Positions 6,447 through 18,593 of a stretch of DNA of 20,000 nt are shown here, piece by piece. This stretch comes from an uncultured virus (IMG/VR IMGVR_UViG_3300047550_002736) (Duplodnaviria > Heunggongvirae > Uroviricota > Caudoviricetes): the IMG/VR virus record IMGVR_UViG_3300047550_002736, one strand, 5' to 3'. Under the pieces are notes generated by a model, which saw only the letters and a list, made by a program, of their open reading frames with translations, did not search any database and had not been told where the DNA came from. The translations under genes and the position numbers were made by a program. Numbering within the stretch: the first letter of the stretch is position 1; every line of letters starts with the position of its first letter.

Positions 6447-6499
6447 ACTAATAAGTAGTCAACGGAACAGAAGAAGGGTCTGGGTGAGTCAATTATCTA

Positions 6500-7588
6500 T
6501 TACATGGTTACTTTTCTCAAAACATAGGCAATCAAGAATGTAGCTGGAATTGTCAATACCCAAGCAAACAATATTCTACCCGCTGTTCCAAAACAAAGTG
6601 ACTTGCCTTCTTTCTTTGCCAAACCTACACCCATAATACTGGTTGTAATTGCATGTGTGGTTGACACTGGCATACCCAACTTAGCTGCCAACAACAAAAT
6701 AGAAGCACCAGTTGTTTCAGCTGCAAAACCGTGAGCTGGTTTCAAATCGACCAACTTGTTTCCAAGTGTATCAATAATCTTCCATCCACCAGCAGCAGTT
6801 CCAGCAGCCATGACCAAAGCACATGTAATCTTAATCCAAAGTGCAATAGTTTGTGTTCCATCAGCAGCAGTCACCATTGGGTGTTTCAAGAACTCCAACC
6901 AAGATGGAGCATTTTGAAGATCGCCCGCCTTTGTAGCAGCCAACAGTGACAATGCAATGATCCCCATGATCTTTTGAGCGTCATTACTACCATGAGCAAA
7001 TCCCATATAAGCTGAACTGATCAATTGTAACTTACCAAAGGTCTTTTGAACGATTTCTAACTCATACACCTTCTTCAACATAAAGTATAAAAATGCCATG
7101 AACAAAAATCCACAAATTAATCCCAATACTGGTGAACTGATCATTGGGATGAATACCTTGTAGAACACACCATCGTTCTTGAACCAAACTCCACCCTTGT
7201 CTTTCATCCAAATGATTGAATTCCAATTGTCATGTGCAGATGCTACAGTAGCACCCAATAGTCCACCAATCATTGCGTGACTTGAACTACTTGGAAGTCC
7301 ATACCACCAAGTAACAAGATTCCACACAATACCACCCAATAGTGCGCAAATGATTGTGGTTGAAGTTACAAAGGTTGCATCAACCAATCCACTAGTTATG
7401 GTCTTGGCAACTGCGGTTCCTACCAATGCACCAATCAAGTTTGTTACTGTTGCTAGAATAATGGCATTTCTTGGACTTAGTGCTTTTGTTGCAACTGTTG
7501 TAGCAATTGAATTGGCGGTGTCATGAAAGCCGTTGATATATTCAAATATCAAGGCAACGATTATTACGGTTAATGCGAGTGTTAACAT
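6500..7588 (-). CDS. pit: inorganic phosphate transporter, PiT family
   Basis: Both PiT signatures present: FEYINGFHDTANSIAT and FAHGSNDAQKIMG; also GLPSSSSHA and GMPVSTTH; many hydrophobic helices. Confidence 0.95.
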   Translation of the reverse strand: MLTLALTVIIVALIFEYINGFHDTANSIATTVATKALSPRNAIILATVTNLIGALVGTAVAKTITSGLVDATFVTSTTIICALLGGIVWNLVTWWYGLPSSSSHAMIGGLLGATVASAHDNWNSIIWMKDKGGVWFKNDGVFYKVFIPMISSPVLGLICGFLFMAFLYFMLKKVYELEIVQKTFGKLQLISSAYMGFAHGSNDAQKIMGIIALSLLAATKAGDLQNAPSWLEFLKHPMVTAADGTQTIALWIKITCALVMAAGTAAGGWKIIDTLGNKLVDLKPAHGFAAETTGASILLLAAKLGMPVSTTHAITTSIMGVGLAKKEGKSLCFGTAGRILFAWVLTIPATFLIAYVLRKVTM

Positions 7589-7594
7589 ATGTTT

Positions 7595-8203
7595 TTAGAA
7601 TTTGTATCTTATAATTAGTGCTGCAATGTCCGCATCTACCCAACGCGAACCAGATAGTTTTGTTTCATGAAAATAATATATGTCACCATAAATGTGTTTG
7701 GTTATGGTATATCCTATACCGCCACCAACACGGTTTCTATTAAACTCAAAACCACTATCCAAATCAAAGAAAATTTCGTCATACACAAACGGAGTTATTT
7801 TGAATCTAGTCCAACTATATGGCAAGTCATATTTGAATCGTTCACGAACTCTGTAATCATTAGCCGTGTTAAGGTCTCCCAATTCATGACCTGGTATAAA
7901 TTCAAATCGTGTTCTTAATGCTAATTTACCCCATTCTCCTTTTTCAGTATAATGAGTTCCCAACATAAAACGACTAGCAAATCTATAACCAGTTTTGCCA
8001 CCCTTGTCTTCGTAAATAAAACGATAAGCAGCAAACGGAGTCCACTTCTTGGTTAAGTTGTAACTATATGATATATCAGTGTGTTCATAGTATGGTTCGC
8101 CATCTTTTGTTCTACCTTCTTGTTCTAATATAAAGTAAGATTTTTCGTCAGCTTTAACCAAAGATGATAAACACAGTAAAAGTAATAGTATATATTTAGT
8201 CAT
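7595..8203 (-). CDS. outer-membrane beta-barrel protein, DUF2490-like
   Basis: Sec signal peptide MTKYILLLLLCLSSLVKA; alternating aromatic/hydrophobic strands; RTRFEF, YRVRER, PFVYDEIFF and FNRNRVGGGIGY motifs as in DUF2490; C-terminal IIRYKF fits the BAM beta-signal. Confidence 0.8.
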   Translation of the reverse strand: MTKYILLLLLCLSSLVKADEKSYFILEQEGRTKDGEPYYEHTDISYSYNLTKKWTPFAAYRFIYEDKGGKTGYRFASRFMLGTHYTEKGEWGKLALRTRFEFIPGHELGDLNTANDYRVRERFKYDLPYSWTRFKITPFVYDEIFFDLDSGFEFNRNRVGGGIGYTITKHIYGDIYYFHETKLSGSRWVDADIAALIIRYKF

Positions 8204-8225
8204 AGTCGTGTGAGAGACTATAACT

Positions 8226-8293
8226 ATGACGTATTCGTGACTGTTCTAAGACTTTATAGTGACAATCCTGTTACAGTGACAATCCTGTTACAG
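8226..8293 (-). promoter_or_regulatory. tandem Pho-box-like array upstream of the barrel-pit operon
   Basis: Minus-strand heptamers in exact 11-bp phase: CTGTAAC (8276-8270), TTGTCAC (8265-8259), AAGTCTT (8254-8248), CAGTCAC (8243-8237), ACGTCAT (8232-8226); a second CTGTAAC-AGGA-TTGTCAC at 8293-8276; PhoB consensus is CTGTCAT-N4-CTGTCAC. A -10-like TATAGT lies at 8222-8217. Confidence 0.75.
8258..8291. repeat. exact 17-bp tandem duplication
   Basis: AGTGACAATCCTGTTAC at 8258-8274 and 8275-8291; overlaps the palindrome AATCCTGT-T-ACAGGATT (8281-8297). Confidence 0.95.
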
Positions 8294-8899
8294 GATTTCA
8301 TCTACCAGACCATACTTGACACACTCTTCAGCACTCAAATAAATGTCATGCTTTAGAATTTCATCAAGATCAGCCTTGGTAAACTTTGTATGTTCCAGAT
8401 AAATTTTGATGATCTTTTCTGATAACATCTCAAGGTTTTTTGCTTCATCCTTGAAATTTTCGTGAGTGCCACCGCACCAACTACGTAGTTGATGAACCAA
8501 CATGACTGCATTTTTACCAATAAATCTACGTTTGCCACATACACTGATCAACGTTGCAGCACTAGCAGCAATACCTTCAACGTAAGTATGAATAGGAACC
8601 TTACAACTATTAATACGATCAATTGTTGTCAAAGCACTAAATATTTCGCCACCATCGCTGTTGATGAATAATTTGACATGTCCAGGCTTTGGCATACCCA
8701 ATTGAATTTGGGTGATCAACATTTGTTTTTCAAGATCTGAGATAGCTTTGTTCAAAGAAAAAATACTTCCAAGTGAGACATCACTGTAGAAGTATATTTC
8801 GTTACCGTGAACTTGACTTTGACCTCTGGATGGTTTTGTTATAATAATTTCTTCATCGTCGAAGTCTGCACTTGGTCTTTGATTTTTGTATTTATACAT
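8288..8899 (-). CDS. clpP: ClpP-like serine protease (peptidase S14)
   Basis: FINSDGG, catalytic Ser in GIAASAAT, His in MLVHQ, Asp in HDIYLSAEECVKYGLVDEI. Confidence 0.9.
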   Translation of the reverse strand: MYKYKNQRPSADFDDEEIIITKPSRGQSQVHGNEIYFYSDVSLGSIFSLNKAISDLEKQMLITQIQLGMPKPGHVKLFINSDGGEIFSALTTIDRINSCKVPIHTYVEGIAASAATLISVCGKRRFIGKNAVMLVHQLRSWCGGTHENFKDEAKNLEMLSEKIIKIYLEHTKFTKADLDEILKHDIYLSAEECVKYGLVDEIL

Positions 8900-10661: not shown

Positions 10662-11027
10662 TTATTCTAGTGTTAACAAATACTTTAGTTTATTTAACTG
10701 ACCCAACATTTCATCACGGATATTCAATAGATCTGTATCTTTCTTTTGATCTAATTCTTTTGGAAGATCGTCAATCAAATATGATATGGAACTATCAACA
10801 AATTTCGAAACAGCTGATGCATCATAGTTACCCAACTCTATCGTGAATGGTCCTTGAACTCTACCATACTTACCCATAAAGACTTCCACAAATTCGTCAA
10901 TCATATCAGTGAATTCATCATATGCCCCACCTAAAGCTTGATGTTGAGCATAACTACCTTTACCTTTGGTTTGCCAATGGTAAATTTTAAGTTGATTTTG
11001 TATGGTTAATAATTTTGTGACTAACAT
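10662..11027 (-). CDS. Dps/ferritin-like protein (DUF5856-like)
   Basis: KIYHWQT...YAQHQAL...YD...IDEFVE...LLNIRDEM...KYLLTL four-helix-bundle pattern with His/Asp/Glu ligands. Confidence 0.75.
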   Translation of the reverse strand: MLVTKLLTIQNQLKIYHWQTKGKGSYAQHQALGGAYDEFTDMIDEFVEVFMGKYGRVQGPFTIELGNYDASAVSKFVDSSISYLIDDLPKELDQKKDTDLLNIRDEMLGQLNKLKYLLTLE

Positions 11028-14864: not shown

Positions 14865-15824
14865 TTATAAATATGATTTAATTGTGTCAGAAAGTGATTC
14901 TCTAAAGTCTGTCAATTCAAGTTTGGAAAATTCTAATTTAAAATCAGTTATATCAATTGAGTAACGGTAGTCATGACCTTTTCTATCTTCGACATATTTA
15001 AACCATTCCCAATCACTCGGGTCTATACCTGTTAATAATTTATATGTATCTTTAATACAATGAATTAACTCAAAATTGGTTATTTCATTTTCACCACCAA
15101 TAAGATATTGTTTACCTATGGTTCCCTCCCGTAATACTGTCCATAAAGCTCTGACGTGATCTTTTACATAAATCCAATCTCTTATATTTTGTCCAGTTCC
15201 ATATAAAGGTATTGGTTCTTTATTTTTTAGTCTTTCAATACAAAGAGGAATCATTTTTTCAGTGAATTGTCGTGATCCAAAATTATTACTACAATTTGTG
15301 ATAATTGCGGGTAATTTATATGTCCTCACAAATGATCGAACCAAAAGATCACTAGCAGCTTTACTAGCGGCATATGGACTATTTGGTTTATAAGGAGTAT
15401 CAACATTAAATGCAGATTCTTTGTAAGATAATGAACCATAAACTTCATCTGTTGATACATGAACAAATCTAAAGTTTTTTTGTTGTTTATATTCTAATAA
15501 ATCACTTAATATTTTATGAGTGCCAATGATATTTGTTTGAATAAATGGTGTCGAATCACTGATACTATTGTCCACATGACTTTCAGCAGCAAAATGAATT
15601 ATATAATCAATATTATAACTTTTTAATAATGTCAAAATAGAATCTTTTGATATATCATAATTATAATGGTGGTATTTTGCATTTGACTCAAATGGTAAAT
15701 TTTTGTTGGCTGCATACGTCATACAGTCAACATTTACAATATTTTCTACATCTGGTCTATCAATAAATTCTTCTATGAAGTGTGATCCTATAAATCCACA
15801 CCCTCCAGTAACTAATATATTCAT
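14865..15824 (-). CDS. rmlB: dTDP-glucose 4,6-dehydratase
   Basis: MNILVTGGCGFIGS, HFAAESHVDNSI, HVSTDEVYG, PNSPYAASK, RDWIYVKDH, DRKGHD.RY; ATG at 15824 preferred. Confidence 0.96.
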   Translation of the reverse strand: MNILVTGGCGFIGSHFIEEFIDRPDVENIVNVDCMTYAANKNLPFESNAKYHHYNYDISKDSILTLLKSYNIDYIIHFAAESHVDNSISDSTPFIQTNIIGTHKILSDLLEYKQQKNFRFVHVSTDEVYGSLSYKESAFNVDTPYKPNSPYAASKAASDLLVRSFVRTYKLPAIITNCSNNFGSRQFTEKMIPLCIERLKNKEPIPLYGTGQNIRDWIYVKDHVRALWTVLREGTIGKQYLIGGENEITNFELIHCIKDTYKLLTGIDPSDWEWFKYVEDRKGHDYRYSIDITDFKLEFSKLELTDFRESLSDTIKSYL

Positions 15825-15825
15825 A

Positions 15826-16692
15826 TTATTGTTTCCAGTTATTAACACAGTAATGTAAAGCTTCTTCAGTTGTTCTCATTTTGATACCAGTTGATAGTAA
15901 CTTTTCATTACTCATTACACAATTAGATCTTGGCGTCTTTGCAAGTGTCTTATAGAATTCATATTCTTCGACAAACTCAAAATTATGATCTTTAGCAATT
16001 GTTGATTTTAACAAATTTACAACTTGTTCAGTGCTGGTATGTCCAGTATTGGTGACATTGTAGATTCCATATGGAACTTTCTTTTTCATAGTCTCTATAC
16101 AAGCACTTACAAACTCTTGTTTGTTTGAAATAGAATTTTCAGCATTTAAAAGTTTCTTATAATTTAACATCTTGGAAAGATAGTTTCTAGAATTATTATT
16201 TTCTTCAAATGGAATTCTCAGTCTCCAAATGTATGATTTATCCCATTTGGATACAATATTTTCTGAAATTGCTTTGGTTCCACTATAAAAACTACAATTG
16301 TTATGTTTAAATGTAAAATTTGGCTCATCTTCTTCTGTGAATGGTTTTCCATCTGGACGAGTTCCTGTATAAATACACCCGCTTGATACGTGACCTAGTG
16401 GTATATCATTTAACATACACCAATCGGTTAGTATTTGAGGCCACGAAATATTACCGTGCAAAGTATCTTCTTTATGTAATTCACACGCATCAACATTTGG
16501 CTTACCAGTATATCCCGCAGCATTTATTACACCACCAACTAGTGGATATCCAGCCTCGTCATACCAATCTTCTAAATCTTGAAATGTTGTAGTTCTAGTA
16601 TTAGGCCATAGAAATACAGGAACTTTTTGTAGTTCAAGTTGTCTTTTAAATTCATGTCCTATATATCCGTTAGATCCAAATAGTATAATCAT
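15826..16692 (-). CDS. RmlD-like NDP-4-keto-6-deoxyhexose reductase, possibly bifunctional 3,5-epimerase/4-reductase (NRS/ER type)
   Basis: GSNGYIG, NAAGYTGKPNVDACE, SSGCIY, SFYSGTK (YxxxK), RLRIP, RNYLSK, PRSNC; lies between rmlA and rmlB. Confidence 0.8.
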   Translation of the reverse strand: MIILFGSNGYIGHEFKRQLELQKVPVFLWPNTRTTTFQDLEDWYDEAGYPLVGGVINAAGYTGKPNVDACELHKEDTLHGNISWPQILTDWCMLNDIPLGHVSSGCIYTGTRPDGKPFTEEDEPNFTFKHNNCSFYSGTKAISENIVSKWDKSYIWRLRIPFEENNNSRNYLSKMLNYKKLLNAENSISNKQEFVSACIETMKKKVPYGIYNVTNTGHTSTEQVVNLLKSTIAKDHNFEFVEEYEFYKTLAKTPRSNCVMSNEKLLSTGIKMRTTEEALHYCVNNWKQ

Positions 16693-17531
16693 AATAATTT
16701 TTCCAAATATTGTTTGTAATCTGATGTTGGCATGTTTTGAATTATCTTTTCAAGTTGTTGTTGTGTTATATATTTGTGTCTAAAACAATCTTCTTCAACA
16801 CAACCTACTTTTATTCCTTGACGTTCTTGAATAGATTGAATATACATTCCACTTTGAAATAATGTTTCAGGTGTTCCAGCATCCAGCCAAGCTGTGCCTC
16901 TAGGAAATTTTATAACATTAAGTTTCTTTTCTTCAAGGTATAAGTTGTTGAGATCAGTTATTTCTAGCTCACCACGTTTTGATGGCTTTAATCTTTTTAC
17001 TTTTTCTAAAACTGTATTGTCATAAAAATACAGACCCGGCACCGCATAATTACTTTTTGGTTTTTTAGGTTTTTCTTCAATAGATAATACATGTCCTTCA
17101 TCATCAAAATCTACAACCCCATATGATGATGGATTATTGACATGATAAGCAAATATGACAGCACCCTCAAGTGTTGGTTTCATTCGTGCCATACCATGAA
17201 ATATATTGTCACCTAATATTAATCCAACACAATCATCCCCAATAAAATCTTCAGCAATTATGAATGCCTCGGCAATACCTTTTGGTTTATATTGAACTCT
17301 ATAACAAATATCAAGTCCTAAATGTTTTCCATCACCAAATAATTTTTCATATGAAGGCAAATACTCTGGCGTGCTTATAATACACAACTCTTTTATATTA
17401 CAATTTATCATCGTGGATAGTGGATAATAAATCATTGGTTTGTCATATACTGGCAAAAGTTGTTTATTCAAGGTTTGATTTAATGGATATAACCTTGATC
17501 CTGTTCCACCTGATAAAATAATGCCTTTCAT
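16689..17531 (-). CDS. rmlA: glucose-1-phosphate thymidylyltransferase
   Basis: MKGIILSGGTGSRLYP, KQLLPVYDKPMIYYPL, LILGDNIF, EEKP, RGELEITD, AWLDAGT. Confidence 0.97.
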   Translation of the reverse strand: MKGIILSGGTGSRLYPLNQTLNKQLLPVYDKPMIYYPLSTMINCNIKELCIISTPEYLPSYEKLFGDGKHLGLDICYRVQYKPKGIAEAFIIAEDFIGDDCVGLILGDNIFHGMARMKPTLEGAVIFAYHVNNPSSYGVVDFDDEGHVLSIEEKPKKPKSNYAVPGLYFYDNTVLEKVKRLKPSKRGELEITDLNNLYLEEKKLNVIKFPRGTAWLDAGTPETLFQSGMYIQSIQERQGIKVGCVEEDCFRHKYITQQQLEKIIQNMPTSDYKQYLEKLL

Positions 17532-17603
17532 AACCTATTATACATATCTGAACAATTCTTAAATTACAACACACTTTGTTTTTATAATTAACTAGTTAGA
17601 ATT

Positions 17604-18593
17604 ATGAACGTAGAGTATGTAGGTCAATATGGAACTTCTGGTTATGCTGTCGCTGCTAAAGGTAATATTTTATATTTAGATTCACAAGGTCATAATGTTA
17701 CATTTAGTCCACTGATGTTTGATGATTCTAAAGTTGACACAGACAGTGATATTGATAAAAAAGTATGTTCAAAAATAAAGACCTTAGATTATTACGATGT
17801 TCAGATAATTCATACTCTTCCAAATTTATGGCCCATTGTTAAAGAAAGAATCAAAAAAAAGTTTCCAGTGAAACAGATAGGATTTTGCACATGGGAAAAT
17901 GACTCAATACCAAAAAACTGGATTTATGAAATTAATAAAATGGATGAGTTATGGGTTCCATCACAATTCAACAAATTATCATTCGAATTTGCTGGTGTGT
18001 CTGTGCCTATCACCGTTTTTCCACATATATTTTTAAATCAAAAACTACCTGATAAATCTTCAACGTGGATACGTGACTTTAATGGTAATAGTATTCCTCA
18101 TGACAAATTTACATATTATTGCATAGCGGAATATTCAGACAGAAAAGGAATTGATGATTTAATTGAGTGTTTTAATGTGGTAAATGATAGTCTTCCAGAA
18201 ACACAATTACTTCTTAAATTACACGATAAAGGTTATTCGTCAGATAATAAACGATCTGTAATTAATAGAATAAAAACTAAAACCAGAAAATTAGAAAAAT
18301 CAATATATCTTATAACAGATAATCTTAAAATATCCGATATACAAAATATTCATGCTTTGGGTGATTGTTATGTTAGTTTACATAAGGGAGAAGGATTTGG
18401 ATTATGTTTATATGATGCGTTTAATTATAAAAAACAAATAATATCCACAAACTACGGTGGTCCACTTGATTATTTAACTGAGAATGAAAATATCAAATTG
18501 ATAAATTATCACAAAATTGGTTCATGGGCATATCCAGATTTGGGTAATGCAATCAACAACATGAAACATTTTTATAAATTGAAAAACAGTTGA
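17604..18593 (+). CDS. GT-B glycosyltransferase (GT4-like)
   Basis: SGYA N-terminus, WE...P..W...D..WVPS, RKG, and GEGFGL nucleotide-sugar-binding motif. Confidence 0.85.
   Translation: MNVEYVGQYGTSGYAVAAKGNILYLDSQGHNVTFSPLMFDDSKVDTDSDIDKKVCSKIKTLDYYDVQIIHTLPNLWPIVKERIKKKFPVKQIGFCTWENDSIPKNWIYEINKMDELWVPSQFNKLSFEFAGVSVPITVFPHIFLNQKLPDKSSTWIRDFNGNSIPHDKFTYYCIAEYSDRKGIDDLIECFNVVNDSLPETQLLLKLHDKGYSSDNKRSVINRIKTKTRKLEKSIYLITDNLKISDIQNIHALGDCYVSLHKGEGFGLCLYDAFNYKKQIISTNYGGPLDYLTENENIKLINYHKIGSWAYPDLGNAINNMKHFYKLKNS

Follow-up and report, generated by a model that had tools for sequence, protein, structure and literature searches.

Cyanophage pstS and phoA are controlled by the PhoR/PhoB of the host (Zeng and Chisholm, as cited in the accessible parts of PMC6359870 and PMC10976474), and pit, which encodes an inorganic phosphate transporter, is listed as a phage auxiliary gene in PMC10987575, the accessible part of which makes no mention of porins, promoters or Verrucomicrobia. 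The known phosphate porins OprP/OprO and PhoE are 16-stranded trimers and the 10-strand class was empty in a 2016 porin classification, according to the available portion of PMC4849052. For the putative porin family DUF2490 (PF10677, TCDB 1.B.81), with more than 4,000 UniProt members (10.64898/2026.07.29.741452), the function is given as not established in the available text of that source and of PMC4827864. The present analysis concerns a 20,000-nt stretch of DNA from an uncultured virus (IMG/VR IMGVR_UViG_3300047550_002736), termed the window, and in particular an accessory cassette of 1,788 bp on its minus strand (6500..8287), in which a phased repeat array is followed by a DUF2490 outer-membrane beta-barrel gene and by pit, here coupled to the barrel and with a mapped empty site. 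A literature search, with subscription journals and supplements outside it, found no DUF2490–phosphate link, phage phosphate porin or pore-plus-importer cassette.

Since the same promoter geometry precedes three pairs of a pore and a phosphate protein, and given the cellular contexts of DUF2490 and the repeat found in likely hosts, we consider it probable that the locus is an optional, host-PhoB-controlled phosphate-acquisition cassette of a T4-like jumbo phage, with the barrel as phosphate channel and PiT as importer. On phosphate shortage in the infected cell, host PhoR would phosphorylate PhoB, dimers of which would bind the 11-bp-phased array and switch on a single transcript; the presence of this geometry ahead of pstS and of an OprO/P-family porin speaks for activation. 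The barrel would reach the outer membrane via Sec and BAM, its arginine-lined face would, as gene context and model suggest, admit phosphate or a similar oxyanion to the periplasm, and PiT, whose family identity is clear and whose activity is predicted, would carry phosphate across the inner membrane. The likeness to cyanophage modules lies in phosphate genes behind a host Pho box, and a relative of the window phage has pstS behind the same array; the differences are a host that is probably a member of the Verrucomicrobiota and a first gene that encodes an outer-membrane pore. Because the inner-membrane step is a complete single-gene symporter, the pair would, unlike cyanophage modules, span both membranes without Pst parts of the host. 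A wider proposal, for which we see equal weight on either side, is that this DUF2490 subfamily constitutes a third structural class of phosphate porin, small, monomeric and 10-stranded, and that freshwater T4-like jumbo phages carry interchangeable Pho-controlled "pore plus capture" cassettes (DUF2490 with PiT, DUF2490 with PstS, OprO/P with PstS, DUF2490 alone) rebuilding phosphate entry over the outer membrane, here over both membranes with two genes and without the DUF47 regulator of the host. If true, a small 10-stranded barrel would be added to the known 16-stranded phosphate porins, DUF2490 would gain a concrete testable function, and the hijacking of host PhoB would extend from cyanophages to jumbo phages of probable Verrucomicrobiota.

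The cassette is flanked by a ClpP-like gene and a T5orf172 gene and has at its ends a 5-bp direct repeat, which takes in the stop codons of the clpP-like gene and of pit. An empty site was recovered on a 5,346-nt contig of run X13, which matches the flanks at more than 99% (4 and 5 differences) and jumps from 6499 to 8288, five letters at the joint fitting either side. The close relative L003 has the same gene order and a barrel that is 95% identical, with no pit and a clean junction. From the X13 site, the L003-type barrel-only arrangement and the relatives with barrel and pit, three alleles are recognised at one locus, namely empty, array plus barrel, and array plus barrel plus pit, and the frequencies of such presence and absence alleles in natural populations could be compared directly with phosphate levels in lakes. 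Pit follows the barrel in four of the seven close relatives with the next gene visible (L002, taken once with L009 and L011, and L003–L008; L010 ends inside the barrel) and not in L003, L005 and L006. Obligate coupling is thereby rejected, and on this point the preliminary description of this DNA, which had treated barrel and pit as one uptake system, is not supported as it stood. The constant part of the module is the array with the outer-membrane pore, and the partner varies (PiT, PstS or none); as the pore stays when pit is lost, the outer membrane appears to be the step worth supplying for these phages. Both genes are under purifying selection (dN/dS 0.05–0.15 for the barrel against six relatives and 0.03–0.07 for pit against three). 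The phage gene setting, host derivation, purifying selection and dispensability seen in the empty site are those of a phage auxiliary module.

The probable PhoB-binding array (Pho box) comprises five 11-bp-phased half-sites at 8226..8276 on the minus strand, between the stop codon of the ClpP-like gene (8288–8290) and the barrel ATG. The GT-cores lie at 8274, 8263, 8252, 8241 and 8230, at exact 11-bp spacing, and the heptamers read, in order, CTGTAAC, TTGTCAC, AAGTCTT, CAGTCAC and ACGTCAT; direct GTCA-type heptamers with an 11-bp period upstream of a promoter are the form of a Pho box. It is the only chain longer than three in the window across periods of 8–15, the longest chain being 2 or 3 in 200 of 200 dinucleotide shuffles of the whole window and never above 3 in 10,000 shuffles of the 90-nt spacer. 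The intergenic region had been described as filled by heptamers at the 11-bp period; this stands for the five in exact register (8276–8226), while two more, at 8293 and 8282, are a half-site pair added by a strain-specific 17-bp tandem duplication (8259..8293, minus strand) and lie 6 bp out of phase with the main array. The duplication is missing in L003 and in public run X4, where 17 letters are left out at 8254. In all eight close relatives (L002–L008, L010) the array register is kept and the spacers have diverged, L007 being cut upstream. The stop codon of the ClpP-like protease gene (8288–8899, minus strand) forms part of the first half-site, and in L002, L003 and apparently L004 the first half-site likewise overlaps the stop codon of the upstream gene.

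Half-site 5 is overlapped by a conserved CATAGTTAT block (8217..8228, minus strand), which holds the probable -10 element, either CATAGT (8228–8223) or TATAGT (8222–8217). The block recurs in the same register in L002, L004–L006, L008, L010 and the related phage loci L197 and L251, and is altered in L003 and L007. From half-site 4 it is 8 bp to CATAGT and 14 bp to TATAGT; in E. coli the canonical distance from the last half-site to the -10 hexamer is 10 bp. A sigma-70 and terminator scan gave nothing above chance, and the proposed -10 was not among its calls.

As to the origin of the DNA, the window has 28 open reading frames (ORFs) of at least 100 aa. Homologs of 27 are present in the IMG/VR record G410, which spans 65 kb at an estimated completeness of 19%, and homologs of 15 in the complete 368,758-bp record G1410. 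The latter has genes for portal, major head, head protease and baseplate proteins of families that we take to be T4-type. No virion gene lies within the 20,000-nt window itself. With these homologs and the G1410 virion genes a cellular origin is rejected, the phage origin assumed at the outset is borne out, and the window is, judged by its gene content, DNA of a T4-like jumbo phage family.

These relatives carry the comparison that bears most on function. In G1410 a barrel of the same clade (L197) lies 6 nt ahead of PstS (TIGR02136, 229 bits, above cut-off), and upstream of it stand two perfect half-sites, with the CATAGTTAT block in unchanged register; pit is absent from G1410. This DUF2490 plus PstS cassette (L197:4850-6536) is situated in the direct terminal repeat of G1410 and is therefore present twice. 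In another phage (L251/G1413), 15 of whose 28 ORFs are homologous to G1410, the same promoter geometry precedes an OprO/P-family porin (PF07396, 37.9 bits vs 20.9) and PstS. The stretch L251:2501-4783 (IMGVR_UViG_3300010885_031536), with three perfect phased half-sites, the OprO/P-family porin and PstS, is inserted past a ribonucleotide reductase gene. The OprO/P porin in the equivalent slot of a related phage suggests that the DUF2490 pore admits phosphate, and the only partners seen in array-bearing phages are PiT and PstS. What had been presented as an alternative to PstS-based phage modules is rather one of a cassette series that includes barrel plus PstS and OprO/P plus PstS. The scan of IMG/VR for the promoter geometry returned five stretches on four contigs (G410 and G1410, as expected, one intragenic chance match, and L251, which was new), and the relaxed scan (55 stretches) found no further phosphate cassette, its intergenic in-register matches being the three known contigs only. 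The first array pattern had no match on three phage records, and the triple-core pattern had one in G1410. An OprO/P entry from a phage is present in BFVD.

The array was also compared with promoters of candidate hosts. In five Verrucomicrobiota genomes, triple GTMAC-N6 arrays gave six matches against one in the reversed control, and four of the six stand ahead of genes of the Pho regulon, two before phoB/phoR-like pairs, one before a receiver gene after phoU and one before DUF47-pit. A phased pair or triple lies upstream of DUF47-pit in 8 of 18 loci with the start located (22 examined). Phased GT(C/A)AC repeats were seen ahead of phoB/phoR-like and DUF47-pit genes at L150, L152, L155, L029, L041, L016 and L048. 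We propose phased GT(C/A)AC as a candidate consensus of the Verrucomicrobiota Pho box. A matrix built on 19 cellular half-sites gives its top score in the window to the site ahead of the barrel (20.3, against at most 10.4 outside the array), and the barrel site likewise leads in G410 (65 kb) and across the 369 kb of G1410 (18.3, the next 15.4); because the matrix core was taken from a pattern that the phage had suggested, the independent test lies only in where the top matches fall. By matrix and host triples, the sequence of the array matches the likely Pho box of the host, which agrees with the reading first given to it.

That the array is read by another OmpR-family regulator or by a phage protein, or that PhoB acts on it as a repressor, is in our estimation very improbable. 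Several OmpR-family proteins make use of 11-bp GTxA repeats, the probable -10 is partly covered by half-site 5, the repeat runs the opposite way in some cellular DUF47-pit promoters, and our literature search found no published Verrucomicrobiota Pho box. Against this, the repeat is situated directly ahead of phoB/phoR-like and phoU-linked genes of candidate hosts, and in phages it precedes pstS and OprO/P porin genes, which to our knowledge are induced by phosphate starvation wherever studied.

The barrel gene (7595..8203, minus strand) encodes a DUF2490 protein of 202 aa with ten predicted strands, a candidate phosphate channel. The Pfam match (76.5 bits against a cut-off of 29.8, E 2.8e-21) covers profile positions 12–180 of 186, and the ESM Atlas neighbours are all DUF2490 (0.97). 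A hydrophobic helix at 2–14 is followed by VKA, read from sequence and model as a signal peptide, and the protein ends in IRYKF; the signal helix and C-terminal Phe are shared with the family, and they corroborate the Phe-terminated, signal-peptide-bearing barrel initially described, 6 nt upstream of pit on the same strand (gap 7589–7594). The AlphaFold2 model (141 sequences, mean pLDDT 94.6) has ten strands, with mean hydropathy of +0.6 on the outward and -1.3 on the inward side. The predicted protein thus combines signal peptide, an even number of amphipathic antiparallel strands and a C-terminal aromatic residue, as outer-membrane beta-barrels do. Among 61 inward positions assigned by alternation there are 17 K/R and 11 D/E, a net charge of +6, while the whole mature barrel is neutral (27 basic, 26 acidic). 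R61, R97, R99, R120 and R158, and likewise E101 and E143, are conserved at 88–95%, and the DUF2490-typical residues R97, E143, R158 and W188 are kept. Profile and structure prediction give DUF2490, ten strands and a basic inward face. The strands had been called Arg/Lys-rich as expected of an anion channel; the inward net charge of +6 bears out the basic residues, but a basic lumen is a trait of the whole DUF2490 family, and inward net charge was rejected as a discriminator, since it does not separate phosphate-linked from other members.

Structural comparison places the model among generic small barrels without a close solved relative. The top fold match is a designed 10-strand barrel (Z 14.3, rmsd 2.8, 143 aligned), followed at Z 11.8–12.2 by OpcA (Z 12.2, the best natural match), BrkA, PcoB and KdgM. 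The small monomeric barrels KdgM and NanC (12 strands) and PcoB (10 strands) resemble it in kind (KdgM Z 11.8, rmsd 3.4, 140 aligned; PcoB Z 11.8, rmsd 4.6, 157 aligned; NanC 10.8), yet at 11–13% identity this is a generic barrel likeness and their substrates are others. Profile search gave no solved relative at E 0.001; with ten strands, no KdgM Pfam match and KdgM at E 0.047 only, the barrel is not placed in KdgM/NanC. OprP/OprO and PhoE resemble it in proposed role, arginine-lined path and Pho-controlled operon, and OprO/P takes the equivalent slot in L251, whereas the window barrel has 183 residues and ten predicted strands. PF07396 has no match in its 202 aa at E 0.01, and the barrel is not a member of OprP/OprO/PhoE, although it may function in a similar way; that OprP and PhoE are not among the listed fold matches says nothing either way. 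DUF2490 has no match in 50,697 INPHARED phage records, and neither barrel nor pit has a PHROG at 1e-8. One locus (L001) from the single-sequence barrel scan of viral contigs was discarded as spurious.

A sealed barrel without a channel, which would mask or compete with a starvation-induced receptor (superinfection exclusion) or stabilise the envelope, and would be co-regulated with pit since both matter in starvation, strikes us as improbable. A barrel of ten strands is narrow, and among natural folds the adhesin OpcA fits best, within 1 Z unit of BrkA, PcoB and KdgM. Freshwater phages carry many small barrels without a known role, and of the five more distant phage barrels in this clade, four (L012, L013, L196, L199; all fragments) lack both array and phosphate neighbour, a finding that counts for sealing and against the phosphate channel alike. 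The same is true of a buried Arg/Glu/Tyr network in 238 of 2,789 DUF2490 models, described in the available part of 10.64898/2026.07.29.741452, which could indicate a gated or sealed lumen. In contrast, a related phage has a bona fide OprO/P-family porin in this slot, preceded by the same promoter geometry, and cellular DUF2490 genes are set within transporter operons, between binding protein and permease, which phage exclusion would leave unexplained.

The second gene (6500..7588, minus strand) encodes an intact PiT (PHO4, PF01384) inorganic phosphate transporter of 362 aa, Verrucomicrobiota-derived. The PHO4 match (309 bits) covers the whole profile (1–350 of 350) without stops, with NGFHDTAN at 19, PSSSSH at 99, HGSNDAQ at 199 and PVSTTH at 307, and in an alignment to the solved transporter 6L85 the two signature Asp residues (D23, D203) and the two S/T-H motifs coincide. 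Sequence thus assigns it to the PiT family, and transport activity is predicted. NCBIfam places PitA (137.3 bits) before the sulfate permease CysP, weaker at 67.9, both under cut-off. The best named relatives are from Pedosphaera, Limisphaerales and Prosthecobacter (Verrucomicrobiota; 60–66%), and a FastTree of 102 rows nests the phage PiT copies, in a clade of 12 rows (100*), within Verrucomicrobiota branches. The host is hence probably a member of the Verrucomicrobiota, in line with the diderm host expected from the outset, and the public runs that share half or more of the sampled words carry freshwater, lake, aquatic or marine labels (13 rows, 2 possibly the source). Against L002 the dS of pit is 0.76 and that of neighbour genes 1.7 to saturated, and this lower value is a sign that pit was exchanged between phage lineages. 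A pit-like match of 40% is present in the 735-kb phage LR756501.

The cellular Verrucomicrobiota DUF47-pit operon, source of the phage pit (62–68% identity), has the same phased repeat upstream at some of its loci, and the phage has the barrel in place of DUF47. All 19 of the Verrucomicrobiota or Kiritimatiellota loci that were checked have DUF47 upstream of pit, and tblastn found no DUF47/PhoU in the window or in five related phage records, which confirms the absence noted previously; with DUF47 lost, PiT may escape control, although the copy in the host could act in trans. Across 80 cellular pit loci no DUF2490 was found near pit, and the barrel–pit pairing was therefore probably made in phage. 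Of the neighbourhood of DUF2490, pit and Pho box proposed earlier, the array and phosphate partners are present in phages, and a DUF2490–pit pair is not found in these 80 cellular loci. One pit-bearing contig titled Patescibacteria (L019) has 66% GC, falls with its pit among Lysobacteraceae/Methylococcaceae in the tree and is probably misbinned; its promoter has three half-sites and a terminal block almost identical to that of the phage.

DUF2490 occurs in 52 of 401 sampled Verrucomicrobiota genomes, and 41 of 61 listed places were inspected. In nine of the 41 it lies beside pstS/pstC or a Na/Pi symporter, in five gene orders that include pstS-DUF2490-pstC-pstA and DUF2490-pstSCAB-phoU-phoB-phoR-like; all nine belong to a single clade and so do not count as separate events. 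The phosphate link suggested earlier for DUF2490 gains support from these independent contexts, cellular pst and Na/Pi loci on the one hand and the phage PstS and OprO/P slot on the other. A full set of eight inward basic residues is present in 9 of 12 phage barrels, in 12 of 14 barrels from the pst-linked clade and in 0 of 56 other cellular barrels, the positions having been picked post hoc, after the alignment was seen. All placed members of the window barrel's clade are on phage-like contigs, and no close cellular relative was found among 401 genomes from the order of G002 (15 with matches, best E 4.9e-18).

A cassette that is Pho-regulated, with the barrel as a broader oxyanion or organophosphate channel (phosphate esters, pyrophosphate, molybdate, sulfate, dicarboxylates) in place of an orthophosphate pore feeding PiT, is the alternative that these contexts bring up, and we judge it rather unlikely. 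DUF2490 neighbours include modAB (5 of the 41), DASS and AspT carriers, Sox/TauE, arsH, cysA and PhoD, with DASS, Sox and TauE at single loci; the closest solved channel by profile is, weakly, the acidic-sugar porin KdgM; and the barrel is kept under the array without pit in L003, L005 and L006. However, array-bearing phages pair the barrel only with PiT and PstS, both orthophosphate proteins, and the eight-basic signature common to pst-linked barrels is absent from mod-, DASS- and PhoD-linked ones. The separate DUF2490 clade directly ahead of modA-modB (L104, L109, L118, L138, L141; at least two in nif clusters) is, from its context, a candidate molybdate porin. An order-level search found that 4 of 15 DUF2490 loci precede a PhoD-like phosphatase; at L202–L205, four genomes in the order of G002, DUF2490 is directly ahead of a Tat-type PhoD-like alkaline phosphatase. 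Three tandem DUF2490 paralogs follow a chemotaxis receptor gene at L137:4418-6718.

Several further observations weigh against the phosphate cassette and its host-PhoB control. Among the inspected Verrucomicrobiota loci, 32 of 41 have no phosphate-transport neighbour and the five with modAB have molybdate genes instead, and such a neighbour was seen in 0 of 19 DUF2490 loci of the Pseudomonadota, Planctomycetota, Desulfobacterota and Bdellovibrionota samples. Of 32 cellular DUF2490 loci, just one has a phased pair in the 420 nt ahead of it. The careful tree, with 54 of about 115 rows, sets the phage clade (100/100) apart from the pst-linked clade (100/100), an unstarred group (94/76) being all that unites them; an origin of the phage barrel inside the pst-linked clade is not supported. 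The net basic lumen is family-wide, including DUF2490 members without a phosphate neighbour, salt bridges with the eleven inward acidic residues could close a 10-strand lumen, and the PstS-linked barrel L197 lacks three strand-6 arginines, R118, R120 and R122. On the regulatory side, two of the six host triples precede genes without a known phosphate role (a DUF6531 gene; nothing recognised), and the PhoB matches are best matches under the equivalog cut-off (238 and 252 vs 296). Predicted Pho boxes in one cyanophage were not always bound by PhoB, according to the accessible text of PMC10976474.

Other genes of the window may be mentioned briefly. An inorganic pyrophosphatase (PF00719; 12324–12851, minus strand) is syntenic in L002 and L003, and the host-derived matrix found no high-scoring Pho site ahead of it. 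A nucleotide-sugar cluster (nucleotidyl transferase, RmlD-like, dehydratase) with a group 1 glycosyltransferase at 14865–18593 suggests, by its gene families, glycosylation of virion, DNA or host surface. The DUF5856 protein at 10662–11027 (minus strand), presumably Dps/ferritin-like, matches a PHROG annotated as starvation-inducible regulator. The G1410 genome carries many transposases and homing endonucleases, and on the phage-like contig of L006 a prepilin-type N-methylation protein (PF07963; L006:1650-2111) is encoded three genes past the barrel-only cassette.

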